From assembly GCA_963825035.1 (NCBI GenBank), contig CAWGRT010000008.1, forward strand, positions 183,775 to 247,774: a stretch of 64,000 bases of DNA. Direction: 5' to 3'. This DNA comes from Candidatus Krumholzibacteriia bacterium (GTDB taxonomy: Bacteria; Krumholzibacteriota; Krumholzibacteriia; LZORAL124-64-63). Positions 1,366 through 52,414 of the stretch are shown piece after piece. Under the pieces are notes generated by a model. The model was not told where the DNA came from, did not search any database, and was given only the letters and a program-made list of their open reading frames with translations. The position numbers and the translations under genes are program-made. Each line of letters opens with the position of its first letter. The stretch's first letter is position 1.

Positions 1366-2770
1366 ATGAGCGGAGACCTCTTCAACCCCGAGAACCCCGA
1401 GCCGGAGCGCGAGCCCGCGCCCGGCGCGGCCGACGCGCCCGCGTCCGCCGCGCCTTTGGCCGACCGCATGCGCCCGCGCAGCCTGGACGAGGTGGTGGGC
1501 CAGGACGAGTTGCTGGGACCGCGGGGGCCCCTGCGCCTGCTGCTGGAGGCGGACAGCCTGCCCTCGCTGCTGCTGTGGGGCCCGCCCGGTTGCGGCAAGA
1601 CGACCCTGGCGCGCCTGGCGGCCAGGCACACCCGCGCGCGGTTCCTCGAGTACAGCGCCGTGGCGGTGGGCTCCAAGGAGTTGAAGGGCGTCATGGCCGA
1701 AGCCGCCAAGCTGAAGCGCGCCGTCGGCACCCGCACCATCCTCTTCCTGGACGAGATCCATCGCTTCAACAAGGCCCAGCAGGACGCCCTGCTGCCCTGG
1801 GTGGAGCGGGGCGACGTGACCCTGATCGGGGCCACCACCGAGAACCCCAGCTTCGAGGTGAACAGCGCGCTGCATCTCGCGCACGCGGCTGTTCGTGCTC
1901 AAGGCCCTGGACCCGGCGGCGGTGCGCGTCCTGCTGGAGCGCGCCCTGGCCGGGGAGCGCGGACTGGCCGGCGCCCTGGACCTGACCGGCGACGCCCTGG
2001 ACGCCCTGGCCGTGGCCAGCGAGGGCGACGCCCGCGCGGCCCTGGGGCAGCTCGAGACCCTCGCCGCGGCGATGGCGGCGGGCGCGGTGCCCGAGGCGGC
2101 CGACGGCCCCCTGGACACGGACGCGGTGGCCCGGGTGCTGGCCAGCCGCGCGGTGCGCTTCGACAAGGCCGGCGAGGAGCACTTCAACCTCATCAGCGCC
2201 CTGCACAAGAGCCTGCGCAACAGCGACGTGCAGGCCGCGGTGTACTGGCTGGTGCGCATGCTCGAAGGCGGCGAGGACCCCCTCTACCTGGCGCGGCGCC
2301 TGGTGCGGTTCGCCAGCGAGGACATCGGCCTGGCCGAGCCCCAGGCCCTGGTCCAGGCCCTGGCCGCCCGGGATGCGGTCCACTTCATCGGCATGCCCGA
2401 GGGTCGGCTGGCCCTGCTGCAGGCGACGGTGTACCTGGCCCTCTCGCCCAAGAGCAACGCCCTGTACCGGGCGGGCGCCCAGGCCGAGGCCGAGGTGCGG
2501 CGCGGCGCCAGCCCGCCGGTGCCCATGCACCTGCGCAACGCCCCCACGCGCCTGATGAAGGACCTGGGCATGGGCGACGGCTACGTCTACGCCCCGGACA
2601 CCCGCGAGGGCATCGCGCGCATGGACTGCCTGCCCCCCGGCCTGGCGGGCCGGCAGTTCTACGACCCGCGCGGCCGCGGTTTCGAACGGGAGCTGAAGGA
2701 CCGCCTCGACAAGCTCCGCAACTGGCACGCCCGGCGGGGAGACCCCTCCGCCGGGGACGGGAACGAGTGA
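1366..2770 (+). CDS. rarA: Replication-associated recombination protein A (AAA+ ATPase RarA/MgsA). Carries a single-base frameshift near 1873.
   Basis: N-terminal half is in frame 1 ([43 protein letters not shown]). C-terminal half is in frame 2 ([12 protein letters not shown] to the end, ORF 1895..2770). Around 1870-1876, ctgcatctcgcg would read as the canonical ctgctctcgcg (NSALLSRTR) without the extra 'a'. Confidence 0.85.
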
Positions 2771-3862: not shown

Positions 3863-4768
3863 CTACTCGTTCCGCGCTGCCCTTCGACGTAGGTGTTGGC
3901 GTACTGGAACCAGTTCACCCGCATCGTGCCCACCACGTGGCCCAGACCTCGTACTCCATCTTGCGCGCGGTGTAGTCTTCGTCAGGGACAGCACCGTGAA
4001 CGCGCCGATCAGGGGCAGGTCCTTGGCCTTGAGCAGCTCCAGCATCCACTCGGCGCCGGGGGTCAGGTCCGACCATGCTGCAGGGAGCACTCGTCGCCCA
4101 CCGCGTACCAGGCGTAGTCCTCGGGGCCCGGGTTCGCCTTGGCGCTGTCGGGCAGGTCGATCCGCGGCACGTAGACGAAGTTCGCGAAGGCGCTCTTGAT
4201 CGTCTTGACGGGATCGCCCTCGTTCTCGGGCAGGAAGGTGGCGCTTGGCCTCGTCGATGTCCTTGCGGTTCCAGCCGATCTCCGGCAGCGGCGCGCCCGG
4301 CATCTCGTTGTCGATGGCGCCCGAGCGCAGCAGCGCCGGCAGCACGTAGTCCTTGGGCGTGGGCAGGCTGTCGGCGACCACCACGCCGTTCTGCTTGATG
4401 CGGCGCAGCACCAGGTGCGTGGGCTGGGGCGTGAAGGTCTTCTGGACGCCCAGCAGGGTCGCCGCGTCGAGGCTCCGGTAGCGGTTCTCCAGGTCGTCGC
4501 CCACCAGGAATTCGAGGAGGTTCTTGTCGTTGCCGCGGCCGCGGATGATGGCGACGTTGCCCTGCACGTAGTCGAACTCCGGCGCGTCGATCTCGAACAG
4601 GAAGTTGGTGCTCAGGGTGTCGCCGCAGATGACCCGGCGCAGGGAGTCGTAGACGTAGGGGTCCACCTCTTTCTTGCCGCCGCAGCCGGTCAGGCCGACC
4701 AGGGTCACGGCCAGCAGGCCGAGCAGGATGACGGGAACCCAGCGACGCAGGGTAGACACACCGAACAT
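3863..4768 (-). CDS. Lipoprotein of unknown function. Has a signal peptide with lipobox LTGC and at least 3-4 single-base frameshifts (~4243, ~4068, ~3990, ~3945).
   Basis: N-terminus [31 protein letters not shown]. Protein-like segments continue in shifted frames: [45 protein letters not shown], then [31 protein letters not shown], then [15 protein letters not shown]. Confidence 0.55.
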
Positions 4769-4986
4769 GAACGAACCTCCCAATTGGTACATGCCCTCGC
4801 CCCGCCGGTGGGATGCAGGGCGGCGATCGACGGAACACCGGGCCGGACCGGGTGATCCTAGGCCCGGCGCCAGGCAAGGTCAACGAATGACTCGCCGTCT
4901 CAACCCCATGAAATTGGGGCATAGCTCGGCATAAAAAGCAAATGCATTCGCGCCGGCGGCGGCGCGCTGTCCGGGCGGACCGGCGT

Positions 4987-5690
4987 TCACAGCCGGGGCA
5001 GGTGGCGCACGGCGGCCAGCACGGCGCGCGGCGCCTTCGATCCCGCCCTCCCAGAGGGACTGGAAGATCTGCCAGTGGCCCGGCATCAGGACGCCCGCCG
5101 AGGAGAACAGGCGCGAGAACCGCGCCCGGCGCCGGCCCTGGCGGATAGCCGGGCAGGCCCGCCCGCTGCAGGCGGCCGTCCACGCACCACGTCCCAGGCC
5201 GCGGCGAAGGCCTCGGCCAGGGCCGCGGGGATCAGGTTCCGGCACCACCCGTCCGTCGAGGAGGTCGCCGGCCAGGGCGAGCTGGTGGTGGAGGAACGCG
5301 TTGGTCTCGGCCGGCGAGAAGCGCGCGTCGACGAAGGGCTCCTCGTCCCGGGGCGCGGCGACCTGCTCCCAGACCGCGCGGCCCGGCTCGACCGCGCCCG
5401 CGGCCCGGATCGCAGAAGGCGGCCGGCGCGCAGTAGAGGGTCAGCACCGGGGCCGACCGCGCCGGGACCGCCCGGGTCCAGGCGCAGCCAGCCGTCGTCG
5501 CCGTCGGGCAGGTCGTCGCAGCAGACGACCACCGCCGACAGGGCATCCCTCAGCTCCAGGTGGCGCAGGGCCGCCAGGGCCCGGGGCGCCACCAGTTCGG
5601 CCAGCTCGGGCGCGCAGGCCAGGCAGCGCACCTCCGGTCCGGGGTTGCCGTCGCGGTCGTCCACGGGATCAGGCCCCGACCACCATGGCC
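4987..5690 (-). CDS. Hypothetical protein, possibly nucleotidyltransferase-like or DUF2064-like. Frameshifted; the start is uncertain and overlaps the end of the lyase gene.
   Basis: Protein-like segments across three frames: CLACAPELAELVAPRALAALRHLELRDALSAVVVCCDDLPDGDDGWLRLDPGG; AVWEQVAAPRDEEPFVDARFSPAETNAFLHHQLALAGDLLDGRVVP; MPGHWQIFQSLWEGGIEGAA..AVLAAVRHLPRL, then the stop at 4987. Confidence 0.35.
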
Positions 5691-5699
5691 GCCGCCCGT

Positions 5700-7073
5700 G
5701 ACCGGCTTCAGGCGCACGGTGAAGTGCCGCAGCTGCGGCGGCTGCCAGACGATCTCCAGGCCGCGCAGGCGTTCGGCCATGCGCCACCACGTCGGCGCAG
5801 CACTCGGCCACGTAGTCCAGCTGGGTGTGGGTGTAGACCCGCCGCGGCACCGCCAGGCGCACCAGCTCGTTGGCCGGGTGCACCAGCTCCCCCGTGTCGG
5901 GATCCTTGTGCTCGAACATCAGGCTGCCGATCTCCACCGCCCGCACGCCGCCCTCCAGGTACAGGGCCGCGGTGAAGACCTGGGCCGGGAACTGGGACGG
6001 CGGGATGTGGGGCAGCGCCGCCTTGGCGTCGAGGTAGACGGCGTGGCCGCCGGTGGGGTGCAGGTAGGGCACCCCCAGCTCGTCCAGGCGTCGGCCGAGG
6101 CGCGCCACCTGGCCGATGCGGTAGTCCAGGTAGTCCTGGTCCAGCACTTCGTGCAGCCCCTGGGCGATGGCCGCCAGGTCGCGCCCCGCCAGGCCGCCGT
6201 AGGTGGGGAAGCCCTCCCGCAGGATCAGCAGGTTCGTGACGTTCTGGGCCCACTCGTCGTCGTCCAGGCAGACGAAGCCGCCGATGTTGGCCAGCCCGTC
6301 CTTCTTGGCGCTCATGGTGCAGCCGTCGCCGTGGGAGAACATCTCCTGGGCGATGGACTTGATGCTGCGGTCGCGCGTACCCGGCCTCGCGCTGCTGGAT
6401 GAACCAGGCGTTCTCGGCGAAACGGCAGGCGTCGAAGATCAGGCGCTTGCCCCGGGCGTGCGCGAACTCGGACACGGCCTTGATGTTGCCCATGGACACC
6501 GGCTGGCCGCCGCCGCTGTTGTTGGTGATCGTCAGCATCACGAAGGGGATGCGGTCGGCGCCGTACTTCTCGAACGCGGCGGCGAGCTTGCCCAGGTCCA
6601 TGTCGCCCTTGAACGGCGCGTCCAGGCGCGGGTCCAGGCCCTCGGCGCCGATGCAGTCCAGTGCGATGGCGCCCCGGAACTCGACGTTGGCGCGGGTGGT
6701 GTCGAAGTGGATGTTGTTGGGCACCACGTCGCCCTCGTTCGACCACGGCCGTGAAGAGCAGCCCCTCGGCGGCGCGGCCCTGGTGGGCGGGGATGACGTG
6801 CTTGTAGCCGAAGAGTTCGCGGATGGTGTCGCGGAACCCCAGGAACGAGGTGCTGCAGGCGTAGGCCTCGTCGCCGGTCATCAGCGCGCCCCACTGCAGG
6901 TCGCTCATGGCGCTGGTGCCGCTGTCGGTCAGCAGGTCCACGTAGATGGCCGCGGACGGGATCTTGAAGATGTTGTAGCCCGCCTCTTCCAGCAGGCGGG
7001 CGCGCTCCTCGCGGCTGACCCGGCGGATCCTCTCGACGACCTTGATCCGGTAGGGCTCGAACGGCAGTTCCAT
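5700..7073 (-). CDS. tpl: Tyrosine phenol-lyase / tryptophanase family beta-eliminating lyase. Has at least 3 frameshifts (~6745, ~6370, ~5700).
   Basis: MELPFEPYRIKVVE..AHQGRAAEGLLFTAVV, then VVPNNIHFDTTRANVEFRG..FKGDMDLGKL..NNSGGGQPVSMGNIKAV..FDACRFAENAWFIQQREAGYA, then SIKSIAQEMFSHGDGCTMSAKKDGLANIGGF..FPTYGGLAGRD..EIGSLMF, then AERLRGLEIVWQPPQLRHFTVRLKPV. This matches Citrobacter TPL closely. Confidence 0.8.
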
Positions 7074-7203
7074 GGCAGGGCTCCTCGCGCGCTGCGGGTG
7101 GTGGGCCGGCCGCAGCGGGCCCCGGTCCGTGGCGTCCCCGCAAAACTAGCCCGCCGGGGTGCGGCGAACAAGGTCCGCGTGGGCGGCCGCGGCGGCGGTG
7201 GGT

Positions 7204-10124
7204 TCAGGCCTCGGCCAGGGGGGAACGGTCCTGATACAGGACCAGTGCCGCGTCGGTGAGGCGGGAGAGGATCCGGTAGTGCTGGCGCGGGTCCTCGCCC
7301 CCCAGGCACAGGTACACGCCGCCGGCCACGGGCACGCCGGGAGCCCGCGTCGCCGGGGCCAGGCGGACGAAGGGACGGTCGGGCGCCGGGTCGGGCAGGC
7401 CCAGGTCGCCGGCGAGGGTGGTCCACCACGCCTGCCACAGGGCATCGTCCGGCAGTTCGGCCAGGGTGCGCCCGCCCCACTCCGCCAGCAGGGCGTCCAG
7501 GCGACGTCGCGCCGCCGGCAGGACGAGCGCCGGCGCGGCGTCCGGCTGCCGCAGCAGCAGTGCGGCCAGGTCCGCCAGGGTCGTCCCGCGGGGATCGGGC
7601 AGCGGCGCCGGCGGCCAGGGCGCCCCGGCGGCACGGCCCGGGGCCAGGCGTGCCAGGATGCCGTCGGCCGCGGCCGGCGGCGGCCCGGCGGGCGCCGCGG
7701 CCGCGTCTTCCTTCGATTCGTCGGCGGCGGTCGATTCCCCCGCGGCGGCGCCGTCCCGGCGCCATGCGCCCGCGGCGGCCAGCACGTCGGCGGCGGCCGC
7801 CAACAGGTCGCAGGGACCCGGCAGGGCCAGCCGATCGAGGCTCTCCTCGTCCACCGCCAGCCAGCCGTGGTTCCGCAGGGCGGCCGCCAGGTAGTCCAGA
7901 TCCGAGGTCAGGGGCGCGATCACCCGCAGGCGCGTCGGCAGCAGACCGTCGCTGCGGGCGGTGAGGATGCGGGCCACGCCCTGGTCCAGGTTGGCCGCGT
8001 ACTCGGCCACGACCTCGCCCCGCTCGCGGCGTCGCGGACGATTGGGCCCGGCCAGGGGCTCGGGCACCAGGTTGCGCACCTGCTCCCAGAGGCGCCGTGC
8101 CTGGTCGCTGCTGCTCCTCCAGCGCCAGCACGTCGCTGGTGCGCGGCGTGGTCAGGAAGAGGTTTTCCCAGGACTCGACCCCGGCCGCCGGGTCCACGCT
8201 CATGAGCAGGCGCCGGCCCCGGCCGTGCTGGGCGATGCGGTAGCGCACCTCCGGTGCGAAGCGTTGGATCTCCAGCATCACCACCACGTCGTCCCGGCCC
8301 GGAGAACCGGTTCCGGCCGGCGGCGGCGCTGCGGCGGGTTCGGGCAGGTCGCCTTCGTCGGTCAGGCGCAGGTCCAGAGCCAGCCCCGCGCCAAGGGCGG
8401 CGCGCGCGGCCGCCGCAGCCGCGGCGACGTCGGGGCAGTACACGGTCACGTCGCCCGGGTCGTCGCCCCGCGCCGCGGCCCGGGCCAGCCCGGCCATCGT
8501 GCTCGCCAGGCGGCCCGATCCGGCCAGGCCCCGCAGCACCAGGAAGGCGGGCTCCGCCGTCTCGCCGCCGAGGCGGGCCGTCCGGTCGACGGCCTCCGCC
8601 GCCGCGGTGCCGCCGTGGTTCCCCTGCCCGAAGAGGGCGCGCAGGCCGCCGCCGCCGACGTCCCGGTCCGCGTCCGGGGGCGTCGGCCGGCCGCCGAGAG
8701 CGCCGGCCAGGGTCCAGGCCTCGTGCCGCGTCCGCACCGTCGCGCTGTCAGCGAGGGTCAGCAGGTCCACCAGCGGCAGGGTCTCGTCTCCTGCCGGGCC
8801 GAACCAGCGCCAGAAGCCCAGGGCCGTCCCGAGGTCCAGGAACGTCTGCTCGTCCGGACGCAGTTCGACCAGGCCCGTGTCCACGAGGAAACCGCCGCCG
8901 GTCTCCACCGCCGCGCCCATCACGTCCTTGATCCGGCGCCGGAACAGGTCCACGTCGGCCTGCAGCGCCGCCAGCACCTGATCCAGGGGCCGGGTCGGTC
9001 CCGCCAGCCGCCGGGTGGAGGCCAGGGTGCCGCGGGGCGCCGCATAGACCAGGCCCGCGGTGCCGACGCCGCCGCCCAGGAGCCAGGTGTCCGCATCCTG
9101 CAGGGCTCCCGCGTCGGCCCGGGCGGGCGGCTGGGCCAGGTCGATCCACGTGCGTCCGCCCGCCGGCGTGCGCCCCAGCCACAGGGGCAGGAAGAGTCCG
9201 AGGGTCTCCCCCAGGCGATCCAGCCGGCCTTCCAGTTCGGCAAAGCGGGCCGGGATGAGCAGGGCGTGGCTGCGGGCACGTCCGTCGCGGTCGCCTGGGG
9301 CGTCGTCACCCGCGGCGGAAAGGGGATCGCCGGCCAGGCGCGCCGCCCAGCGGAGCACCCGCACCGCAGCCACCACCTGGGACGCGGCCAGGCCCGCCTG
9401 GACCGCCAGCTGCGACGCCGACACCAGTTCCCCGTCCAGGTCGGGCGACGCGCGGTCGGGAGCCGCCGCCTCCCGCCGTTCCTCCAGCAGGGGCCGCAGC
9501 CGGCCCAGCAGCCGGCGCAGTCGGGCCACCAGCGTGGCCGCCCGCAGGGCGCCGGTTTCCCCGGCCTCGACTGCGGCCGGCGGACCGTTCACCGTGACGC
9601 CCGTGGCCTCCGCCAGGAAATCGCGCCAGGGACCGGGCAGATCCCGCGCCTGCAGCACGACGGCCGGCGCCTCCAGGCGCAGCACCGCCCGCAGGGCCGC
9701 AGCCCGCACCTGGGCACGTCCCGCGGCCGGCGGGCAGCCAGGCGGGCAGGTCCGGCACCAGCACCAGCCGGGGCCGGTGGCGCGCCGTGTAGGCGGCGAC
9801 GCTGCCGTCCAGCAGATCCTCCGGCCGGACCCAGAGCACGGGCGCCGGCGCCCGGGTCCGGGCGGGCCAGGTGGAGCAGCCGGCCGCCCCGCAGCGGGCG
9901 ACGAGTTCGGCCGCGGCAGCCCAGCCCCGGGGGGCGACCACCAGGATCCAGGCGTCGAGCCGGCCCCGCTCCCAGGCGGCCTCGGCGCCGGCGAGCAAGG
10001 CGTCAGCAGACAGGCCGGATGCGCCCACTTCCAGCCGGGCACCCGTCGCGGGCCAGGCCACCGTCGCCGCATCCGCCGGTTGGTGCTCGCCCCGGGCCGC
10101 CAGCCACGCCGCAACCTCCGCCAC
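7204..10124 (-). CDS. Large uncharacterised protein of ~970 aa, frameshifted. It contains a degenerate SF1-helicase-like C-terminal motif and a Walker-A-like GLAGSGR with K replaced by R.
   Basis: GTG start at 10124 (VAEVAAWLAARGEHQ). Long protein-like run FLVDTGLVELRPDEQTFLDLGTALGFWRWFGP...FLVLRGLAGSGRLAST...DDVVVMLEIQRFAPEV..RLLMSVDPAAGVESWENLFLTTPRTSDVLALEE. After a frame change it continues VVAEYAANLDQGVARILTARSDG...GVYLCLGGEDPRQHYRILSRLTDAALVLYQDRSPLAEA to the stop at 7204. K is almost absent. Confidence 0.5.
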
Positions 10125-10259
10125 CAGGGACGGCGCCAGGCGCCGGCGGGCTTCGCCGCTGGTCTCGGGCAGGTCGAAGCAGCGGGCCCGCCCCCGGCGG
10201 CGAGCGCCGCTGCGGGTTCACCGCTCCAGGTTGCCGGCGCGGGCGCGGTTTCCGGTTGG

Positions 10260-13206
10260 TCACCGTCGTGCGCCGGCCGTCGCGCAGCAGCCGCCACCAG
10301 CGCGGATCGAGCACCTCGACCGCGCTCCAGCCTCCGGCCAGGTAGGCGGCCAGTTCCAGGCCGGCCCGGCGGACGATCTCGTCCACGCGGCCGGCCCGTT
10401 CCGCGTCCGCCGCCCGCCAGTCCGCGGCGTCCGGTCCGGCCGGGGCGGGCAGCTCACGTTGCAGCGCCGCCAGCTCCGGCACCACGAGCACGGCCGCGGT
10501 CCCCGCCGGGGGACCGGTCCCCGCGTCCTCCAGCAGATCCCACGAATCGGTGGGCACGGCGAAGCGCCCGTCCCGCGCCGCGCGCCAGAAGGCCCGCGCC
10601 GTCGCGCCGTCCGGCACGGCCACCAGGCGCCGCGGCCCGTCGGCCGCCGTCTCGACCACGTGGGCCAGGGCGGCGGCCAGGGCTTCGGCCCCCAGCCGGC
10701 GGCCGCCCGGGACCGGCGCCCCGGTCGGCCAGGGCCAGGCCGCGGCGTGCGCAGGTCGGTCAGGGCCAGGCGGTAGGTGGGCCCGTAGGGCGCCGAGCCA
10801 GCGGCCGAGGAGATCCTCCAGGTCCTCGCGGCACCACACCGCCCCCGTCAGCAGGGACAGGTGACGGCGCCCCCGCTGCAGCAGACCGTCGTGGCGGGTC
10901 GGCAGTCCGGCTTCGCCGGCCGCGGCCAGGCGGGCGTGCACCGCGGCGGCGTCCAGGAACACCCACGAGGCGTCGCTGCCCTCGAAGACGCCCCACAGGG
11001 CATCCAGCCGGGCCGGGTCCCGGGGCAGCTGGTCCACGTGTCCGGCCACGAAGCCGGCCTTGCGGGCCCGCTGGCCGAACTGGGCGCCCCAGCCGTCGCC
11101 GCCGTCGCCGCCGGCCAGGGAGGGTTCCTCCCGGGGCAGGTCAGCCACGCTCGCAGCGTAGCGGTCGTACAGGGGGAACGCCCCGGCGTGCCAGGGGCGC
11201 ACGGCCCGGAAATCCAGCAGGTCGCCGTTGTGGGTGGAGACCACCCGCGTCCAGTGGAACACCGCCAGCAATCCCTCCGCCGGATCGTCGGGAGCCGACC
11301 GCGTGCGGACCAGGTCGTCGAGTCGCGCCAGGGCCGCGTCGAGACGGTGGACCAACCCGTCGTGGGGAATCACCGTCACCGGGCCCACCACGTCCGCCGC
11401 GGCCGGAGCCAGCTCGGCCAGGCGGCCCATCCGGTCCAGCACCACCCGCCAGCGGGAGCGTCCCGCGCCCCAGGCTGCCAGCACCGCGGCCGGATCGCCG
11501 GTGGTGACCACCGCCACGTCGTTGCGGCCCAGGTCGGGATGGGACGTGGCCGCGGTCTCGGCCGCCCCCGCGCCACGGCCGGGCCGGGCGAAGGGATCCG
11601 GCCGCGTCCAGAGCAGGGGCACGGTCCAGGGCGCGAAGGAGGCGTCCATGGCCCGGGCCGCCTCGTCCCCCACCGTCAGCAACCGGTGGAGCACGCCTGC
11701 CGCCGCGTCGCCCCGGCCGGCCAGGGCCAGCAGTCCGGCCCGCAGGGACGGATCGCCCTGGGCCACCCGGGTGCGCAGGGCCAGCACCGCCAGCCCCGCC
11801 AGCAGGGCGCGCCCCAGGCCGGTGTCGGCCCGGGGATCGGTGGCCCAGTCGTCGGCGGGCCGCAGGTCCGGCGGGCCCAGTTCGCGCCGCCAGCCGGCTC
11901 GCCACGGCCCCCGTTCGCCCGCCGCCAGGCGGCGCAGGGTCGCCTCGTCCAGCCCGCTCCGGGGCAGGTCGGGCTCGGCCAGGGCTTCCACGAAGGAGCC
12001 CACGGGCCAGGCCGCCGGCGCCTCGTCCCAACAGTCGCCCACCGCGGCGAGGGTGGCCACGTCACGGGCCACGATGCGGTCGCCGCAGGGTTCGAGGAAG
12101 AGGTCGAGGGCGGAAGGGTCGTTCCCGGGGGTCCAGCGGGCGAGGTCGCGCGGTTCGGCGCCCCACCAGAAGACCACCGTCACCGTGCCGTCGCCCCCCA
12201 GGGCGGCGCTGGCCCAGGCCGCCGGCACGGCCCCGGCCCCGGGTTCGGGCCGGCGGAACTCGATGCGCGCCACGGCCGTGCCGTACCGGCCCGCCTGCTC
12301 GCTGCCCGCGGCCAGCCCCGCCGACTGCAGGGCGCCGAGGGCCTCCTCGTAGCGGGGGACGGGGAAGTGGGCCGCGTCCACGTTGGCCAGCAGCTCGAGG
12401 GTGCGGACCCGGGCCTCGTCGGCCCGCGGGCCCGGCTCGGGGTTGGTCTGCAGGTAGGCCCGGTACAGGCGCACGCTGGCCTCGGCGTCTCCCTGCAGAC
12501 GGTCGGCGGTCACGGCCTCGAGCCACGCCCGCTCCTCGGCCAGTCGGCCCGACGAACCGAAGTAGCGGGGTTGCAGGAGCTGCAGCACCGCGGCCGCCCA
12601 CTCCCGCGCCGGCCCCGAGCCCCGTTCCAGGCGCCCCTGGTCCAGGAAGATCTCCAGGAGGTCGCCGCCCCGGCGGGCCAGCCAGAGACGATCCTCCTCG
12701 GTCAGGGGCACGTCGTGCCGGATCAGCCGCACGTCGAAGACCCGGGCGGTGCGGGCGGCGGTGCGGAACAGCCCCTTCAGGAGAGGGACGGCCGAGGCGA
12801 ATTCCTCCGGGAACAGGCGGCTGCGCACCACCAGGAAGAGGGCCGTCTCGAGCACGGGCTGATTGGCCTCGGCGTCGTCCTCGGGGCGCAGTTCGGCCAG
12901 GCGCACGCCGTCGCGGACGGCGCGCTCGCCGGCGGTCAGGAAATCGCCGCGGAAGGTGGTGGCGCGCCGCTCCCAGCGCCCCGCCGCAGCCGCCGCGTCC
13001 TCGGGCGGATGCCGCCCCCGCAGCAGGCGGCGCAGGCCGTCCGCCAGGCTCTCGGTCAGGAAGACGCGGCCGGGCGAGCCGTCCCGCCGCTGCTCGGCCG
13101 CCAGGTACAGGCCCTCGGCCGCCGGGAGGTCGCCCCGACCCAGGGCGCCCTCGGCGTCGTCCAGCAGGTGCCAGTAGCTGCGATCCTTCGTCCGGTCGTA
13201 CTCCAT
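10260..13206 (-). CDS. Large uncharacterised protein of ~980 aa with a TPR-like N-terminus. No recognisable catalytic motifs. The C-terminal end is uncertain and may be frameshifted into the next gene.
   Basis: ORF 10003..13206 begins MEYDRTKDRSYWHLLDDAEGALGRGDLPAAEGLYLAAEQ. Sustained protein-like composition includes VFHWTRVVSTHNGDLLDFRAVRPWHAGAFPLYDRYAAS and WVFLDAAAVHARLAAAGEAG. The frame-1 tail after RRTTVT turns low-complexity. Confidence 0.5.
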
Positions 13207-13270
13207 GGACGGAATCTAGCACGGAGGCCCGGGGCACCGGAAGCCGAAACGAGACCCGCCGCCGGCGGGA

Positions 13271-16200
13271 TCACCGGGTCAGGACGATCCGCGTGGTGTC
13301 GCTGCGTCCGCCGCTGCGCACCACGGCCAGGTAGGTGCCCGCGGCCATGATCCGGCCGTCGCCGCCGCGACCGTCCCAGAGCAACCCGTCCACCGTCCCC
13401 GCGGCCAGGGTGCGCACGCGCCGCCCCCGCAGGTCGTAGATGGTCACCTGCACCGGCACGTCGCCGCCGCCGGCCAGGCGGAAGCGGAAGCGCCCCGCCC
13501 CCGGGTTGGGAAACACCGTCAACCGCGACGCCGCCGTCACCGGCGGCGCCGCACTGACGGGCGTGTCCACGGGATAGGCGGCACTGTTGCGGCCGTCCCG
13601 CCGGGCGGAGGGCCAGCGGGCCACGGTGGCCGCCGCCACGGGGATGGGCGTGGCCGCCAGGAACTCGTCCAGCACATCCACCCGCAGCAGGGTGCCGTCG
13701 CTGCGGGGCACCAGGACCGTACCGGCGCTGCCGGTGGGCATGGCGTCCGGGCCACCCTGTTCCCGCGGCAGCCAGGAGGCCAGGGGCCGGCCGCCGGGAT
13801 CGGGCACGTACCAGGCCGCGACACCGCCCGGGATCGACGTCACCCCGGAGATCACCTCGGTCCAGTGGAAGCTGGCCAGGACCGCCGGTTCGGTGCCCGT
13901 GCCCCCCAGGATGTTCCAGGTCAAGGGCGTCGGCAGGCGGTGGCTGTCCAGCACCAGGCGGCCCTCGTCGGTGCTGGCGCGGATCTCCAGGCCGGGGCAG
14001 ATCTCGGCCCAGGCCGTGCCGTCCGGGCGCAGCACGCCCCGCGCCAGTTCCCAGGCGGCTCGGGATCCGGTGGCGCCGTTGGCCGCCAGCCCCAGCACCG
14101 ACACGCCCAGTTCGCCGGTGCCGTAGCGGCCCGTCACCACCGCCGGCCCCACGGCCACCCAGGGCCCGCCGCCCGGGCTGGCCAGGGCCGTGCCGTCGCC
14201 GACGGCCGGCGCGCCGTCGGCACCCAGCACCCGCATGGTCACCAGCCCGCCGGCCGCGTCGCGGGCGGGCAGCACCACCTCCAGGCCGCCGTCGCCGTCC
14301 AGGTCCACCAGGATCGGCGGGCTGGTCAGGGCCAGACCCAGGTCCCGGGGCCACCCGGGACGATCGGCCAGGTCCTCGTCCAGGGCGCACACGTGGCCGT
14401 CGGCGAAGGCCACCACCAGGGATTCGTCGCCGCCGGGCGTCAGGGCGCCCGCCGCCGGCGCCAGCGGCGCGGCGTGGCCGAGGCCGCGTTGCTGCCGCAA
14501 CACGCCGCCCGCCGCCCACGCCCGCGCCAGACCGGTGCCGTCCACGCTCACGACCCGCCGTTCCGTGGGTCCGGCGATGCCCACCGGTGTGGACAGGGGC
14601 ACGTTGAAGGCGAAGCTGAAGGTGGTGCGGGAACCGTCGGGCGCGAAGAAATAGGCCGCTCCGTAGTCGGTGGTGGCCACGATCTCGTCCCCCGCCTGCC
14701 CGTCCAGGTCCCAGACGAGGGGTTCGCGCCAGGCCGCCGTCGGCGGACACCGGCGGGAACAGGTAGACCGGCCAGCCCGGGCGGATCGTGCCGTCGGCCT
14801 CCAGGACGGTGATCGCGCGCGCGGCGTCGTCCACCGCCACCAGCGACGGCACCACCAGCGACGTCCGCAGGTCCGGCCCCAGGCTGCCCACGTTGGGGCT
14901 GCCGGTCAGGCGCCCCGGCAGTTCGTACCGGAAGCCCTGGGCGGCGAACCCGTCGGCCTCGCGCAGGCGCAGCGTGACCGTTCCGGAACCCGTCTTGCGC
15001 TTGACCGCCAGGAAAAGCCAGTGGGAAGCGGTCGGGTGCACGTACACGAACTCCGAGACGCCTGCGCCGGCCGCATCCCGGTGTACGGACACGTCGTCGA
15101 GGCCGCTGATGCGTCCCGCCGGATCGACCACATCCAGCATGACATCCAGGCCCGGCGCCGGCACGGCCTCCACCAGGTAGCGCACGCCGGCGATGGTGTC
15201 CAGGCGCCGGGCCGCCACCGGGCGCACGAAGTCGGCGGACAGGGTGTCCAGCTGGTCGGCCCCGGGCAGCAGGGGCAGGCAGGCGGCGCGGACCGCCGCG
15301 TCGATGCGCAGCAGGCCCCAGCCCTGCTGCGCGTCCGGTCCGTTCCAGGCCGGCAGCGGGGTCGTCCCCAACCCGTCGGCGGTCTCGGCGGTGGCGACGG
15401 GCTCGGCGGTGGCGGTCAGCAGCACCCCCCGGGTCAGGGCCGCCGTCCGATCGGCCGGCAGATCCACGCCGCGGGTGCGCAACGCCTCGTCCAGCAGCGC
15501 CACCGCGCCCACGGTGTGGGCCGCGGCCATGCTCGTCCCCCAGCGGGGCGAGTAGGTGTCGTTGGGGTCGTTGTCGGCGGCCGTCACCCGGCCGGCGTCG
15601 GCCAGCAGCCCGCCGGCGGGCGCCACCAGGTCCGGCTTGCCCTGGCCGGGCACGCCGCGTCCGCTGAAGGCGGCCACGGCACCCGCGTCGTCGACACCGC
15701 CGGCCGTCAGCACGAAGGGCAGGCGGGCGGGGTAGCCGGGGCCGGCGGGATCGTCGCCCTGGTTGCCCATGGCCGCCACCACCGTCACGCCCTCGTCCAC
15801 CAGGCGGCCCAGGGCCAGGCTGGTGCCCGCCTCGCTGTCCCAGTTGACCGCCACCAGCACGCTGCGCACGCGGTAGGTCTCGCGGTTCTCCAGCACCCAG
15901 GCGCAGGCGGCGAGGAAGTCGCCCGCCCAGGCATGCCAGGTCTGGTCGAAGTCGTAGAACTTGACGACGGTCAGGCGCAGGGCCGGGGCCATGCCGGCGT
16001 AGGCCGCGTCCAGGTGGCCGCTGCCCGCGGCCACCGACGCCAGGGCCGTGCCGTGCCAGTGGTAGTCCCAGGGTCCCTGGGCCAAGGGGAAGTCGTCGGT
16101 GACGTCGGTCCAGCCCACGACCTTGTAGCCCGCGTAGAGGGGCCAGCCGGCGTCGGCCGGGTACCAGTCGCCGGCGTCCCCCACCGCGGGCGGCGGTCCG

Positions 16201-16952
16201 TCCGCGTCGTCGTCGTCCCGGTCCCCCAGGTCGCCGTGGGCCGTGTCGCAGCCCGAGTCGAGGATGGCCACGGTGCCTGACCAGTCCCGGCCCAGGCTCC
16301 AGCCGCGTTCCCGCACCCGCGCCACGCCGGCCATGGCCTGCTGGGGCGTCACCGCCGGCACGCCGTCCCGGTCGAGCATGAGGCGGCCGCCGCCGGCGCG
16401 CGCCAGCACCGTCGCCAACCCGGTGGCGTCGCAGGAAAGGACCGCGGTGTCGAAGGCGTCGATCCGGTGCAGGACGGCCACGCCGCCGGGAGCCGCCTTG
16501 GCCGCGCCGTCCACGGCGCCGGCGGGCGGAGAGAACCACAGCAGGCGCACGCGGCCGGCGGCCCACGGTCCCCCCTGGTCCGCCAGGGCCTTGGGCACCG
16601 TCGCCGGCTCGTCGGCCAGGGCGCCGGCCTTGGCGGCCCGGCGCGGCCCGGCCGTCGCGGCCTCCCGCAGGGCCGTCCAGGCGGACTCGCCCCGGGACCA
16701 GGCGTCCAGCAGGTCTTCCACGCCGTTGCCGTCGCGGTCGAGGGTGGCGGCGAAGATCGCCGCGGAATCGTCCGAGGGAGAAGGGTAACCCGCGGCCGCC
16801 GACCTGACCGAGGTCGCCATCGCCAGGATGAGGGCGAGGCCGATGCCGACCGTCAAGGCCGGCCGACAGGTGGCGCCGGCGCGAGGGACCGGGCGATCTT
16901 TGGGATGACCGCTGGTCGGAAGCCGGGCGCAGTCTGTGCAGGTCGCGGACAT
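13271..16952 (-). CDS. Secreted subtilisin-like (S8) serine peptidase of ~1225 aa with a type IX secretion C-terminal sorting domain. One frameshift near 14700.
   Basis: Signal peptide LTVGIGLALILAMATSVRSAAA. Catalytic triad context AILDSGCDTAHGDL, HGTALASVAAG, GTSMAAAHTVGA. The frame switches at PPVSADGG / WDLDGQAGDEIVATTDYGAAYFFAPDGS. The C-terminus TVFPNPGAGRFRFRL..VQVTIYDLRGRRVRTL..GTYLAVVRSGG is a Por/T9SS sorting domain. Confidence 0.8.
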
Positions 16953-17159: not shown

Positions 17160-17523
17160 TCAGAACGCGCCCGGGAAGTGCCGCAGCCGGCAGCCGCGGC
17201 CGTCGCCTCCATGCTCGACGGCCACCACGTCGCACCGGCAGCCCGCGGGCGCCGCGCCGGGATGCTCGGCCAGCCAGCGGCGGGCCAGGCGCCGCAGGAG
17301 GGCCTGCTGACGGCCGCCCACCCAGGCCTCGGGCCGGTCCAGGGCGCCGACGCCCCGGGTCTTGACCTCCACGAACACCACCAGCCCGTCGCCGTTCCAT
17401 CACCAGGTCCAGCTCGCCCCCCGGCCGGCGCCAGCGCCGGTCCAGCACCCGGTAGCCGCATGAGGCGAGGAAGGCGGCGGCCAGCGCCTCGCCGGCCTCG
17501 CCCAGGTCGTGCCGCGCACCCAT
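17160..17523 (-). CDS. yraN: YraN/UPF0102 family endonuclease. Frameshift near 17390.
   Basis: MGARHDLGEAGEALAAAFLASCGYRVLDRRWRRPGGELDLVMER, then LVVFVEVKTRGVGALDRPEAW...CRCDVVAVEH, in a second frame. Confidence 0.7.
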
Positions 17524-18676: not shown

Positions 18677-19405
18677 TCAGGCGCCGTCGTCGGTTCCGGC
18701 CAGCTCGGGCCGGCGTTCCCGCGTGCGTCGGTCGGCCTGCTCGCGGCGCCACGCCTCGATGTTGGCGTGGTGGCCCGAGAGCAGGATCTCCGGTACCGCC
18801 AGGCCCCGGTACGCGGGCGGCTTGGTGTACCACGGACAGTCCAGCCCGCCGCCGCGCTCGACCGTGAAGCTGTCGTTGGCCGCCGAGTCCTCGTTGTGCA
18901 GCGCCCCTTCGAGGCGCCGCACCACCGCGTCGGCGATGACCAGGGCCGGCAGCTCGCCTCCGGAGAGGACGAAGTCGCCGAGGCTGATCTCGCGGGTGAC
19001 CACCAGCTCGCGGACCCGCTCGTCCACGCCCTTGTAGTGGCCGCAGACGAGGATCAGCTCGCCCGCGTTCTCCAGCTCCGCCAGCAGGTCCAGGGTCAGG
19101 GCCTCGTCGAAGGTCTCGCCCTGGGGCGTGGTCAGGATGACGGTGGCGTCCTCCCGCGCCCGGCTGGCCTCGACCGCCTCGACCACCGGCGGCGCCATCA
19201 TGATCATGCCCGCGCCGCCCCCGTAGGCCGTGTCGTCCACGGTGCGGTGCCTGTCCACGGCGAAGTCGCGGATGTCCACGACGTCGTAGCGGACCAGTCC
19301 GGCCCGCTCGGCGCGGCCGGGGATGCTGGTGGCCAGCACCGTCCTGACCATCTCCGGGAAGAGGGTCAGGATGCGGATGACCGGCGCCTCAGGTGCGGTG
19401 GACAT
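18677..19405 (-). CDS. trmD: tRNA (guanine37-N1)-methyltransferase. Reads intact.
   Basis: [10 protein letters not shown]...[62 protein letters not shown]. Confidence 0.88.
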
Positions 19406-19912
19406 CGAGCAGTCCTTCCGGCGGGTCGATCACCAGGTCGCCGTCGAGGCCGTCGTCCGGCCGCAGGATGGGCGCGACGGCGGGGATCAGGATCTCCCCC
19501 GACGTCGTCGGGCACCACCAGCAGCAGCTGGGTCCCGGCCCGCCGCACCTCGTCCACCGTGCCCACCACGTCGCCCGACGCGGTGACCACGCGGCGTCCC
19601 AGGTAGCGGAAGGCCAGGCCGCCCGCCGGCCGCGGGAAATCCGGGTCCAGGTAGCGGGCGCGCAGGAAGCCCAGCTCCCGGCCCAACGAGCCGTTCGGCA
19701 CCGTCGCGGTCGTCGCTGCCCTCGGGCCGCAGGGCGACGCAGCCGCCGCCAGCGGGCCGGTGGCCGTGCAGCCGCGCCGGCGTGCCGTCCGCCCACACCA
19801 GGAAGTCCGAGTCCAGCAGGGGCTCGTGGAAATCGAGCAGCGGGTAGAGTTTGACCTCTCCCTTGAGCCCGACCGCCTTGACGATCTCCCCGATGGCCAC
19901 GAACGCGTCCAT
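19389..19912 (-). CDS. rimM: 16S rRNA processing protein RimM. Two frameshifts.
   Basis: [31 protein letters not shown], then [58 protein letters not shown], then [32 protein letters not shown], across three frames. Confidence 0.8.
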
Positions 19913-20883: not shown

Positions 20884-22225
20884 TCAACCGCCCAGGACGC
20901 GGCGGCCGAACTCCTGGAGTCCGCCGGCGGCGTTGATCTGCTTCATCATCCGCCGCATGTCCCGGTACTGCTTCAGCAGCTTGTTGACCTGCGAGACGTT
21001 CGTCCCGCTGCCGCGGGCAATGCGCTTGCGCCGCGAACCGTTGATGATGTCGGGCCGGCGCCGCTCCTGCAGCGTCATCGAGTTGATGATCGCCTCGACG
21101 CGGGCCAGCTGGCCGTCGTCCACCTTGGCCTTGTCCAGCACGCCGGTGTTCATGCCCGGCAGCATGCCCAGGACGCCCTTCAGGGAACCCATCCGCTTCA
21201 TCTGCCGGATCTGCCGGTGGAAGTCCTCCAGGGTGAACTGTCCGTCGGCGAAGCGGGAGGCCAGCTCCTCCGCCTCGCCCATGTCCATCTTCTCCTCGGC
21301 CTGCTCGATCAGGGTGAGCACGTCGCCCATGCCCAGGATGCGGCCGGCCATGCGCTCGGGGTGGAAGACCTCCAGGTCCTCCAGCTTCTCGCCCACGCCG
21401 CACAGCTTGACCGGGCGGCCGGTCACCTCCAGCACGCTGAGGGCGGCGCCGCCGCGGGCGTCGCCGTCCAGCTTGGTCAGCACGGCGCCGTCGAAGTCCA
21501 GGCGCTCGGCGAAGGTCGTTGGCGATGTTCACGGCCTCCTGGCCGGTCATCGCGTCCAGCACCAGCAGCTTCTCGTCCATCGGCACGGTCTTGACGATGG
21601 ACTCGAGCTCGCTCATGAGCTCGTCGTCGATGTGCAGGCGGCCCGCGGTGTCGACGATCAGCACGTCGCACTTGTTGTCGCGGGCGCGGCGCTGGCCCAG
21701 CTTGACGATCTGCGCGGCGTTGCGGCGCTCGCGGTCGCTGTGCACCGGCACGCCGATGCGTCGCCGATCACGTGCAGCTGGTCGATGGCGGCGGGACGGT
21801 AGATGTCCGCCGCCACCAGCATGGGGCTGCGCCCCTCGTTCTTCAGCTTCAGCGCCAGCTTGCCGCAGAAGGTGGTCTTGCCCGAGCCCTGCAGGCCCAT
21901 GACCATGACCGTCGCGGGATCCTTGCCCCCGGTCGGCAGGTTCAGCTCGGCCGCCTGGCCGCCCAGCAGCTCGGTCAGCTCGTCGTGGACGATCTTGCAC
22001 CACCTGCTGCGCCGGCGTGAGGCTGCCCAGCACCTCCTGGCCCAGGGCCTGCTCGCCGATGGAGGACACCAGCTTCTTGGCCACGCCGTAGTTGACGTCG
22101 GCCTCGAGCAGGGCCATGCGCACCTCGCGCAGGGCCTCCTTGATGTTGTCCTCGGTCAGACGCTCGCTGCCGGCCAGCTTCTTCATGGCCTGGTCGAGGC
22201 GTCTGGTCAGGTCCTGGAACACGGG
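20884..22225 (-). CDS. ffh: Signal recognition particle protein Ffh. At least 3 frameshifts.
   Basis: GTG start; [48 protein letters not shown]-domain [45 protein letters not shown]-domain [16 protein letters not shown]...[14 protein letters not shown]...[17 protein letters not shown]. Confidence 0.88.
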
Positions 22226-33560: not shown

Positions 33561-34316
33561 TCAGAGCTTCTCCTCGATCTCCGGCCATCAGCGCGTCGTC
33601 GATGTCGAAGTTGGCCGACACCCGCGTCACGTCGTCCAGGTCGTCCATGTGGGTGATCATCTTCATGAGGCTCAGGGCGTCGCTCTCCTCCACCTTGACG
33701 TAGGTGTTGGGGATCATCGCCAGCTCGGCCTCGCCACCGGCAGGCCGGCCTCGCGCAGGGCGTCGGCCACCGCGTGCAGATCGGCCATGGCGGTGGTGAC
33801 GGAGATGACCCCGTCCTCCTCCTCCACGTCCTCGGCGCCCGCCTCGATGGCCGCCTCCATGACCGTGTCCAGGTTCGACTCCGCCGCGTCGAGCTGGATC
33901 AGTCCCTTGCGGTCGAAGATGAAGGAGACGCAGCCGTTGGCGCCCAGGTTGCCGTTGTACTTGGTGAAGACGTGCCGCACCTCGGCGGTGGTGCGGTTCT
34001 TGTTGTCGGTGGCGCACTCCACCACGACCGCCACGCCGCCGGGGCCGTAGCCCTCGTAGTTGATCTCCTCGATGATCACGCCATCGAGCTCGCCCGTGCC
34101 GCGCTTGATCGCCTTCTCGACCGTATCGTTGGGCATGTTGTTGCCCCGGGCGTTGGTCACCGCCGCGCGCAGGCGGGGGTTGGCGTTGGGGTCGCCCGCC
34201 CCCCTGCCGCGCGGCGATCGTCAACTCGCGGATGAGCCTCGTGAACACCTTGGCCCGCTTGGCGTCCTGCGCGCCCTTGCGGTGCTTGATGTTCGCCCAT
34301 TTCGAATGACCGGACA
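33561..34316 (-). CDS. yebC: YebC/PmpR-family probable transcriptional regulator. About 2 frameshifts.
   Basis: [41 protein letters not shown]; [62 protein letters not shown]; [45 protein letters not shown], then EIEEKL after an indel. Confidence 0.85.
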
Positions 34317-34328
34317 TCGGCGGATCTC

Positions 34329-36408: not shown

Positions 36409-36602
36409 CGGGTAGGTCTTCAACGGTCATCCTCCCAGTTCGAAGGGGCTGGAGGCAGCGCGTCCGGTCCCGGCGCCGCGCCGGAGTGCGCGCGGGGACC
36501 CGTCGCCGGGGAGCCGGCGGCAGGATACCGGAAACGCAGAGGGATACGACCGGCGGAAGGAAGGCGAAGCCCCCTGCCGGCGGCCGGATTTCGCGACGAA
36601 CG

Positions 36603-36636
36603 GCAATGTTAATAGCCCGCAATATGCGTGTCAACA
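36603..36636 (-). promoter_or_regulatory. Sigma70-like promoter (minus-strand TTGACA-17-TAACAT) for the EF-G-like gene, leaving a ~200-nt leader.
   Basis: AT-rich island. The reverse complement reads TTGACACGCATATTGCGGGCTATTAACAT. Confidence 0.4.
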
Positions 36637-36667
36637 GACCCCGGTGGGAATCGCGGGGGGAAAGTTC

Positions 36668-36696
36668 TGGACACCCCGCAGGCGGCTCATTAATGT
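36668..36696 (+). promoter_or_regulatory. Sigma70-like promoter (TGGACA-17-TAATGT) for the plus-strand OMP gene.
   Basis: tggacaccccgcaggcggctcattaatgt sits ~120 nt upstream of the ATG at 36814. Confidence 0.4.
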
Positions 36697-36813
36697 TATC
36701 CGGGTCTCGGATCCGGCCCTTCCGGCCGTCCCATGACCGTTGCAGCCCCACCACATACGAGCCGTCAGGCGACCGACGCGGCCCCGGGCCCGTGTCCGGC
36801 CGAGGTGATTCGA

Positions 36814-37730: not shown

Positions 37731-37771
37731 GCCGGCGACAGCGGCAGGGCGCCGCCGCGCCGAGACGGACA

Positions 37772-37810
37772 AACAAAAACCGCCGGGGTCTCAACCCCGG
37801 CGGTTTTCTC
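37772..37810. terminator. Bidirectional rho-independent terminator (A-tract, GC stem aaccgccgggg/ccccggcggtt, T-tract).
   Basis: aaacaaaaaccgccggggtctcaaccccggcggttttctctt lies between the convergent OMP and histone-like genes. Confidence 0.8.
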
Positions 37811-37842
37811 TTGGCCACGGTCCCCCGTGCGAGGGCCCGCAG

Positions 37843-38182: not shown

Positions 38183-38310
38183 ACCGGACCTCGCTTGTTG
38201 AGAGTTCCTGCGTCCGCCCGACTCCCGCACCCTTGGGACCATCGAGCAAGACCTCCTGTCACGGACGTTGCTTTCGCCTCGTTTGGCGTCAGGCTGCCAG
38301 CGGAAGCAAC

Positions 38311-38469: not shown

Positions 38470-38475
38470 CCGCGA

Positions 38476-39020: not shown

Positions 39021-40230
<1,210 letters not shown>

Positions 40231-52411: not shown

Positions 52412-52414
52412 GCC

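Follow-up and report, generated by a model that had tools for sequence, protein, structure and literature searches.

The closest described counterparts in fold are the SF1 helicases (UvrD/Rep/PcrA/HelD and Upf1/RecD), which are built on a tandem RecA-like 1A/2A core. AddB and RecC have a helicase-like fold with lost ATPase motifs, and their inactivated helicase domains scan single-stranded DNA for Chi (PMC3321194). Further analogues among the pseudohelicases are PriA of Deinococcus radiodurans, which functions without helicase activity (PMC4504706), and Utp25 (PMC9539457).

The window analysed here, a stretch of 64,000 nucleotides from a Candidatus Krumholzibacteriia bacterium, contains one chromosomal single-copy gene at positions 7204-13206. 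It encodes one polypeptide, referred to below as the giant protein. The tandem RecA-like fold is shared with the SF1 helicases, but an invariant Arg without a following Ser/Thr stands in place of the Walker-A Lys, motif II has lost its Asp, and no SF1 profile matches. In addition, the core is C-terminal in the 2,000-aa protein and is preceded by about 1,500 aa of other domains. The combination of a helicase-like fold and lost ATPase motifs is also found in AddB and RecC. In contrast to these, the giant protein has no adjacent AddA/RecB motor partner (the neighbours are an S8 peptidase or yraN, and Beta_elim_lyase), and neither a recognisable PD-(D/E)XK nuclease domain (no Pfam match) nor a recognisable Fe-S cluster; it ends with a 2A-like domain and shows no sequence relationship to them. 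AddB retains a Walker A with Lys, which is absent from the giant-protein family. A sequence relationship to PriA or Utp25 is likewise absent. Similarity to the SF2 helicases DinG/XPD is low, as the giant protein lacks a Walker A, a DEAH box and the four-Cys Fe-S motif, and Foldseek yields nothing at E<=1e-3. TPR scaffolds (LGN/Pins, YbgF, BamD, Rap/PlcR) differ in that the giant protein has no Pfam TPR repeat and reaches Foldseek E-values of only ~1e-2. RADAR, BREX, Hachiman and Gabija also comprise large proteins with helicase-like folds, whereas the giant protein is encoded by one gene at a fixed housekeeping locus, has no PADLOC match and is absent from plasmids and phages.

Domain layout and the C-terminal SF1-like core

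The two halves of the protein were modelled with AF2 (pLDDT 87.5 and 86.5; pTM 0.80 and 0.85), and the features are listed in Table 1. The TPR-like N-terminus (AEGLYLAAEQ) proposed in the first-pass annotation has fold support as a solenoid, with Foldseek E-values of only ~1e-2 and no matching Pfam TPR profile. Apart from these weak TPR matches, the N-terminal half gave no Foldseek match to the PDB at E<=1e-3. Many invariant residues lie in residues 321-555, e.g., in a WTxPLLWTRPDP motif. The following RecA-like pair has no P-loop, and "VVxTGxPxAV" occupies the position of motif I. Further downstream, the segment 9335-9430 is possibly helix-turn-helix-like. A comparison of the N-half RecA-like pair, the middle domains and the SF1 core by hhalign gave no internal duplication (all probabilities <1%). 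In a 45-sequence alignment, 63 columns of the 977-aa N-terminal half are invariant, many of them Trp, Arg, Gly, Asp or His.

Table 1 Features of the giant-protein locus (positions in the window; residues are those of the protein unless stated otherwise)
Feature	Position	Strand	Remarks
Terminator-like hairpin	13255..13269	-	between S8 peptidase stop and giant-gene ATG; consensus match only
Giant protein CDS	7204..13206	-	single coding sequence; ~1,980-2,000 aa once frames are corrected
Start and stop codons	ATG at 13206, stop 7204-7206	-	
Pieces of the gene	13206-10276, linker 10275-10194, 10217-9720, 9715-8105, 8103-7207	-	
TPR-like domain	12247..13206	-	residues 1-320; all-helical
Small beta sheet and helical region	11542..12246	-	residues 321-555; predicted secondary structure
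Pair of alpha/beta (RecA-like) domains	10276..11541	-	residues 556-977
Invariant H-N-G-D motif	11221-11232	-	within residues 556-977
Triple frame change	10696..10788	-	three close shifts; residues 807-837 of the naive translation out of frame
Frameshift linker	10194..10275	-	poorly conserved; at least 2 frame changes; supposed intergenic boundary of the first-pass annotation
Alpha/beta domain	9584..10043	-	residues ~59-210 of the C-half model; AF2 pLDDT 84-96
Strand-helix-helix segment ELVSASQLAVQAGLAASQVVAAVRVLRWAARL	9335..9430	-	secondary-structure pattern alone; conserved LRWAARLAGD motif
Mixed alpha/beta region	8684..9265	-	conserved motif ETGxGFLVxTGL
SF1 helicase-like core	7207..8605	-	1A, 2A and helical 2B-like insertion
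Walker-A-like loop GLAGSGRLAS	8501..8530	-	family consensus G-x-x-G-[ST]-G-R-[HL]-x-A
Motif-II-like VVVMLEIQRF	8258..8287	-	family consensus hhhM-C-E-x-Q-R-F
Motif-III-like LLM[ST]VDPAA and motif-IV-like LFLTTPR	8141..8209	-	order and spacing
Motif-V/VI-like segment GGVYLCLGGEDPRQHYRILSRLTDAALVLYQDRSPL	7216..7323	-	YLCLGxE...HY..L.R.TD at the very C-terminus; end of the 2A-like domain
Terminator-like hairpin	7149..7169	-	between giant-gene stop and lyase start (7073); consensus match only

The predicted C-terminal core shows the tandem RecA-like 1A/2A fold. Its Walker-A-like loop had been described as carrying Arg in place of Lys. This was confirmed, with Arg in 47/47 members and Ser/Thr in none of them at the following position; the accompanying idea of a degenerate ATPase encoded by a separate gene did not hold, as the core is part of one polypeptide. 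Both [AG]xxxxGK[ST] and a bare GK[ST] are absent throughout the window protein and the five full-length relatives checked. Near absence of Lys, also noticed at first pass, is real (5 of 1979 residues). Lys is nevertheless available to the family because the nearby position 561 is R21/K17, and the Walker-A-like Arg is retained even in relatives with 1.2-1.75% Lys. In motif II, Glu is found in 44/47 and Gln in 43/47 members, and the canonical Asp position is occupied by C30/L6/V4/I3/A2/M1 (47 members). The motif-III-like Asp and the motif-IV-like Thr are each present in 47/47 members, the motif-IV-like Arg in 40/47. At the C-terminus, C969, G971, E973 and H978 are invariant and R984 is found in 45/47; a motif-V-like G-x-E and a motif-VI-like Arg are thereby retained. 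From motif order and secondary structure we infer the assignment to SF1 motifs III to VI. RLLMSVDPAAG, previously taken for a C-terminal helicase motif, fits SF1 motif III (GDxxQ-like) better, since it directly follows VVVMLEIQRF. The catalytic signature of the helicase core is thus systematically altered yet strictly conserved.

Candidate function

The giant protein is, with a probability of about one half, a cytoplasmic, hydrolysis-impaired "pseudo-helicase" scaffold. It comprises an N-terminal TPR-like domain, a P-loop-less RecA-like pair, several alpha/beta domains with no assigned fold and a C-terminal SF1 core (UvrD/Rep/HelD/Upf1-like). The helicase-shaped modules would hold a ligand and not translocate along it, most probably single-stranded nucleic acid, and a nucleotide, hydrolysed slowly or not at all, would perhaps act as a switch. 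Partner proteins would be recruited through the TPR domain, and the role would lie in a housekeeping process and not in defence. This mode of action is modelled on the inactivated domains of AddB/RecC and on pseudohelicases such as D. radiodurans PriA. Binding to nucleic acid is suggested by the predicted folds. Every domain and the whole protein are acidic (median net charge -54, 44 members). Because all domains are acidic, the charge is uninformative or mildly negative for a DNA-binding surface and does not argue for a general one. Acidity is common among real helicases as well. The real activity could also reside in the ~40% of the protein with no assigned fold (residues 321-555, ~1036-1190 and ~1290-1490).

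A wider reading is tentative and on balance doubtful: the single-copy protein of ~2,000 aa may define its lineage, with two helicase-fold modules remodelled, under strong purifying selection, to Lys-less sites. It might then represent a class of ligand-sensing pseudo-helicase machines or a P-loop working with Arg, with a housekeeping role specific to Krumholzibacteria-type organisms, and the fold-unassigned 40% may hold folds not yet seen. If true, an uncultured bacterial lineage would have a large core protein that is strictly conserved and entirely without annotation. The family would also be a natural experiment on an SF1 core in which the Walker-A Lys and the motif-II Asp are replaced while other motif residues are conserved, a possible lineage marker, and a concrete target for biochemical and cryo-EM work.

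A platform for protein-protein assembly, without any nucleic-acid role, appears unlikely. TPR-like and fossil helicase folds would here serve as rigid modules, e.g., of an envelope, secretion or metabolic complex tied to one of the neighbours, the S8 peptidase or the beta-elimination lyase. The TPR-like N-terminus, the acidity of all domains and the absence of a canonical NTPase site are consistent with this, as is the neighbourhood, in which the giant gene is followed by the Beta_elim_lyase gene in 41/42 loci and preceded by the S8 peptidase gene in 27/34. However, the S8 peptidase is a dispensable neighbour, since some genomes have yraN or leuS directly upstream of the giant gene. By inspection, the N-terminus (MEYDRTKDRSYWHLLDD) contains no signal-peptide-like hydrophobic stretch. 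Moreover, the helicase-motif positions rank among the best-conserved residues, which would be unexpected in inert modules.

Less probable still is an active motor, i.e., a non-canonical SF1 ATPase/translocase acting as a DNA/RNA helicase or remodeller, with the invariant Arg in place of the Walker-A Lys and the metal ligand supplied by another residue or a partner. The retained SF1 Glu, Gln, Asp and Arg could leave the site catalytic, with Arg replacing Lys. Against this, no member has the P-loop Lys or the Ser/Thr after it, Cys or a hydrophobic residue replaces the Mg2+-binding Asp of motif II in 47/47 members, and the protein is undetected by any SF1 sequence profile. In P-loop NTPases, Walker-A Lys-to-Arg mutants usually bind nucleotide and hydrolyse it poorly.

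Gene unity and frame changes

The first-pass annotation had assigned 7204-13206 to two adjacent genes of ~1000 aa each. The region is instead one gene, in which conserved sequence spans the supposed boundary and whose relatives are single proteins. Minus-strand coding extends across 7204-13206 (third-position GC periodicity in a GC3 frame plot); the coding signal is real, and it is conserved in relatives. The quoted peptides AEGLYLAAEQ, VFHWTRVVSTHNGDLLDF..., GLAGSGRLAS and RLLMSVDPAAGVESWENLFLTTP were all found in the region. Full-length relatives cover all window pieces in order (tblastn) and traverse every junction as an uninterrupted protein of ~2,000 aa. Of the 100 clusters listed, about 80 are single proteins of 1,960-2,290 aa, the remainder being partial calls or shorter fragments. 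L013 has an intact ORF of 1,984 aa and L049 one of 2,031 aa, and two intact orthologues are P0167 (1,984 aa) and P0032 (1,979 aa). One relative with an intact 1,984-aa ORF is 73% identical to the giant protein of the window. There is no stop codon at ~10260; the frame is open to 10003, though the coding signal stops near 10276. GRARCFDLPE... lies upstream of the GTG at 10124 and carries the homology on in a different frame. Within the linker, RWWRLLRD, ..ATWSGEPAAALAAGG and GRARCFDLPE occupy three different frames (three-frame translation compared with P0167, P0032, P0048 and P0003).

At least 7 frame changes within 6 kb break the gene in the window. Two frameshifts had been placed at ~8150 and ~9900 and attributed to the assembly. 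Their existence was confirmed with true sites at 8104, within the SF1 helicase-like core, and at ~9716-9719, within the alpha/beta domain 9584-10043, and the list was incomplete. The true reading of the triple frame change is approximately ...WLGAPYGPTYRLALTDLRTP..LALADRG..VPGG (three-frame translation compared with P0032), and AF2 pLDDT falls below 50 exactly at the out-of-frame residues. All 16 resolved net frame changes (16/16) are in the same direction. The neighbouring ffh, rimM, lyase, S8 peptidase, yraN and MgsA genes are split likewise, and clusters at 90% identity contain intact copies from some assemblies and broken ones from others. Because the same one-direction frameshifts split ffh, rimM, the lyase and the S8 peptidase genes, the breaks are assembly indels, as first supposed. 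The number of frame changes could also point to a decaying pseudogene in this organism, which is very improbable given the same kind of shift in the essential neighbours ffh and rimM and given that, outside the shifts, 63-76% identity to the closest intact relatives P0032 and P0048 is kept, without in-frame stops and with GC3 maintained at ~0.9. Systematic indels in high-GC long contigs often reduce the public calls of this gene to fragments, which can be mistaken for multi-gene "systems".

Genomic setting and family distribution

Pfam and NCBIfam gave no assignment for the window pieces or the relatives, in agreement with the earlier description of a conserved protein without a family. Pfam searches with 11 members (E<=5) and with the window pieces plus four full-length relatives (E<=1) were empty. 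The SF1 profiles (Pfam UvrD-helicase, UvrD_C, AAA_19, AAA_30 and AAA_11/12) did not match. A profile search of PDB sequences gave 0 matches at E<=10, and when two full-length relatives and three window pieces were compared with PADLOC, no family matched at E<=1. The profile searches suggested at first pass thus found no characterised family in Pfam, NCBIfam, PADLOC or PDB sequences. Sub-threshold matches to FmrO (E 0.039), DZR_2 and PCP_red were the only ones in the Pfam, NCBIfam and PADLOC scans and are unusable. A profile of the N-terminal half gave only 80 matches among 1.84 billion representative proteins, and the stronger ones are nearly all full-length members or fragments. P0152 (Sulfatase) and P0163 (Hexapep) are weak hits of the exhaustive search; the matches are short and unrelated. 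An apparent YraN-giant fusion of 1,621 aa (P0130), resembling a Rosetta-stone protein, was rejected: it aligns only in patches and repeatedly leaves and re-enters the frame, which marks it as a read-through ORF of another frameshifted assembly. So far, the family is confined to Krumholzibacteria-type MAGs, and the giant protein is unmentioned in the listed titles and abstracts of the Krumholzibacteria literature.

In 58 species-level MAGs, the giant gene lies within a conserved housekeeping block and occurs once per genome. The block has the order ffh-rpsP-KH-rimM-trmD-rplS-rnhB-yraN-[S8]-giant-lyase and is found in relatives down to 38% identity; the remaining window is core chromosome. Since the block comprises unrelated housekeeping genes, synteny does not indicate a single pathway. 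A check for enrichment near defence islands had been proposed for the locus; its context is this housekeeping synteny instead of a variable or mobile one. The two-gene defence or repair module first proposed, a large partner with a degenerate ATPase, is scarcely credible, because the position in the housekeeping block is conserved, homologues on plasmids and phages were not found, PADLOC families do not match and the relatives are single proteins. The giant gene is flanked by terminator-like hairpins at 2 sites, compared with 0.6 expected in shuffles.

Extent of the giant gene

The minus-strand region 7204-13206 had been described in the first-pass annotation as two adjacent genes for proteins of about 1,000 aa, with a boundary at ~10260. 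In the third-position GC plot, coding is unbroken from 13206 to 7204, and the frame bearing the GC3 signal switches near 10200, 9700 and 8100 (G+C content of the window 68-79%). In the ORF listing, the upstream part is one 1,067-aa ORF (10003-13206) and the downstream part is spread over three ORFs that overlap and differ in frame. There is no stop codon at ~10260. The supposed boundary is a poorly conserved linker (10194-10275), in which RWWRLLRD, ..ATWSGEPAAALAAGG.. and GRARCFDLPE.. lie in three separate frames, each matching contiguous sequence of relatives. With the upstream part as homology query, relatives longer than the query (1,350-1,694 aa) were found, which extend into the "downstream protein". 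In tblastn, relatives covered 13206-10279, then 10211-9732 and then 9733-8321, each in a frame of its own, and the last junction (8104) is backed by the relatives' proteins P0010 and P0011 (...LFLTTPRTSDIVDL..QRRSARKLWSEIRRLVP..., found in window frame 1, then frame 0).

Of the 100 clusters listed with the family alignment, roughly 80 are single proteins of 1,960-2,290 aa, the others being shorter fragments or partial calls. The nearest full-length relative among the clusters listed is P0032 (1,979 aa, 67% identity). An uninterrupted single ORF is present in locus L013 (1,984 aa; N-half 73% identical; contig of 2.85 Mb) and in locus L049 (2,031 aa). Judged by these comparisons, the region is a single gene. 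The coding signal and the quoted peptides, all of which are present in the window, were confirmed, but not the division into two genes.

Predicted folds and ATPase motifs

AF2 models of both halves were built with 45-47 sequences. The N-half (977 aa; pLDDT 87.5, pTM 0.80) has the TPR-like N-terminus already recognized, and its structure matches were assigned, by secondary structure, to a predicted alpha/beta pair (residues 556-977), which contains no P-loop but is rich in invariant residues, among them H-N-G-D at 659-662. Its sole long low-confidence stretch is due to three further frame changes at 10696-10788. In the C-half (1,002 aa; pLDDT 86.5, pTM 0.85), motif order and secondary structure locate a putative SF1 helicase core to the final ~470 residues (window 7207-8605), with a helical 2B-like insertion interrupting the second RecA-like domain. 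Residues 321-555, ~1036-1190 and ~1290-1490 are confidently modelled, with folds left unassigned, and comparison of the modules by hhalign gave no sign of an internal duplication in the sequence. P0004, P0010 and P0099 carry a C-x-x-C element (CLDCG) ahead of the middle region's long helix (~9480-9560 equivalent), with a sub-threshold double-zinc-ribbon match in P0099; the window protein is without it.

The degenerate SF1-like ATPase proposed earlier holds. Neither the window protein nor any of five full-length relatives examined contains a canonical Walker A at any position. The P-loop consensus is G-x-x-G-[ST]-G-R-[HL], with Arg in 47/47 members and in none of them a following Ser/Thr. The window protein is, as noted before, nearly devoid of Lys (5 of 1,979 residues). 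Position 561 near the P-loop is variable (R21/K17) and the P-loop Arg is retained in relatives with 1.2-1.75% Lys; high G+C therefore does not account for it. Motif II reads hhhM-C-E-x-Q-R-F (Glu 44/47, Gln 43/47), its Asp position being Cys or hydrophobic in all 47. LLMSVDPAAG, previously likened to the SF1 C-terminal motif, directly follows motif II and is followed by LFLTTPR; this position fits motif III instead, and the Asp of the segment is present in 47/47 members. The C-terminus bears Y-L-C-L-G-x-E...H-Y...R-x-T-D with invariant C, G, E and H. At the sequence level, the family is thus shown to have lost the canonical Lys and Asp and to retain the other motif residues strictly.

The giant protein is most likely a pseudo-helicase, as we infer from these features. 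Its helicase-shaped modules would hold single-stranded nucleic acid and/or nucleotide without processive hydrolysis, and the TPR domain would dock partners. Precedents are AddB/RecC, where residues at helicase-motif positions in inactivated helicase domains recognize Chi (PMC3321194), and PriA of D. radiodurans, which does not hydrolyze ATP or unwind DNA but binds both DNA and DnaB (PMC4504706). Against the pseudo-helicase reading count the acidity of every domain and the 40% of the protein outside assigned folds. A pure protein scaffold is an unlikely alternative, though one to be taken seriously; an active motor based on the conserved P-loop Arg appears somewhat less probable still.

Frameshifts in the deposited assembly

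The breaks in the giant gene are, from alignment with relatives, attributable to assembly errors, in agreement with the earlier suggestion. Proteins of a relative's neighbouring genes, aligned to the window, are also split over several frames (see table). Sixteen net frame changes were resolved, 6 of them in the giant gene and 10 in neighbours, and every one has the direction that a single inserted base, or the loss of two, would give; the extra base of the 8104 shift is located in CGACCAGG. Since ffh, rimM and other neighbours share these changes, it is very improbable that the broken frames mark a pseudogene in the source organism. Furthermore, 90%-identity clusters mix fragmented calls from long ENA contigs with intact 1,984- or 2,024-aa proteins from other assemblies.

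Frameshifts are widespread and unidirectional over window 1462-22222. Such pervasive shifts leave gene calls fragmented or fused throughout the contig, as in the single long ORFs over PBP2 and RodA (42763-45510) and over RadC and MreB (47150-49564). An apparent fusion of YraN (UPF0102) to the giant protein in P0130 (1,621 aa, another assembly) was rejected as an artefact, produced by read-through in a high-GC contig with frameshifts and few stops; it is a warning for domain-fusion inference from such assemblies.

Features around the giant gene (window coordinates; frames, number in alignment with a relative's protein)
Feature	Position	Strand	Frames	Remarks
MgsA	1462-2737		2	
Two hypotheticals after lyase	3863-4792, ~5039-5690	minus		L001: 17772-19545
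Conserved hypothetical near giant gene			2	
Beta_elim_lyase	5700-7073		4	
Terminator-like hairpin	7149-7169	minus		directly after giant gene
Terminator-like hairpin	13255-13269	minus		directly before giant gene
S8 peptidase, gene	13271-16952	minus		~1,220 aa; C-terminal FlgD_ig-type domain; frameshift split at ~14700-14725
S8 peptidase, aligned	13277-16910		2	
yraN	17169-17457		2	
rimM	19398-19912		3	
ffh	20887-22222		2	

Family distribution and genomic surroundings

Pfam and NCBIfam models gave zero matches to every piece of the giant gene and PADLOC models none to two full-length relatives and three window pieces; the earlier lack of a family assignment stands. An exhaustive HMM search with the N-half profile returned only 80 matches at E<=1e-3 among 1.84 billion representative proteins. 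The stronger ones are nearly all full-length members or fragments; the few odd ones were rejected, being either chimeric ORFs or short matches without relation to the family. Scanning the GTDB species, each represented by a single genome, yielded 58 loci, all in MAGs, labelled Krumholzibacteria, Krumholzibacteriia, Krumholzibacteriota, "uncultured bacterium", "uncultured Fibrobacteraceae" (a third-party binning label) and, once, Gemmatimonadales. The family is unannotated and lineage-restricted, a variant among helicase-fold proteins and not a separate new system.

The gene order ffh - rpsP - KH - rimM - trmD - rplS - rnhB - yraN - [S8 peptidase with FlgD_ig] - giant gene - Beta_elim_lyase - two conserved hypotheticals is shared with relatives at 38-48% identity; PFK and RarA/MgsA follow on the opposite strand in the window and in relatives. 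Among the 58 loci, 41 of the 42 eligible ones have the lyase downstream; the S8 peptidase is upstream in 27 of 34 relatives' loci and absent from the other seven. yraN is immediately upstream in L042, L053 and L003, leuS in L002. Elsewhere the window contains core chromosomal genes (def, yebC, fusA, lgt, PBP2-rodA, radC-mreB). The surroundings are a conserved, non-mobile housekeeping block rather than an island. Conservation extends to the entire block and so does not tie the giant protein to any single neighbour. Searches of 72,556 plasmids and 50,697 phage records gave no match to the family. Together with the single proteins of relatives, this contradicts the two-gene defence module suggested by the first-pass annotation, the least probable reading.

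The family is unusually rich in Trp (2.7-3.9% overall, 58 residues in the window protein), with more than 20 invariant Trp columns. The adjoining gene encodes a tryptophanase/tyrosine-phenol-lyase-type enzyme, which is probably a coincidence. In nearly all relatives the lyase is succeeded by the two hypotheticals (~220 and ~295 aa, neither with a recorded Pfam family), which accompany the giant-lyase pair. Upstream of the ATG (13207-13230), no Shine-Dalgarno sequence is visible and a TAGATT hexamer lies 6 nt 5' of the start codon; in the source organism the giant gene may be transcribed separately, with almost no leader. Independent transcription is not general, since only ~30 nt separate the gene from its upstream neighbour in some relatives. 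The G+C content is 0.65-0.70 at 34000-40000 and 52000-64000, compared with 0.72-0.79 elsewhere in the window.
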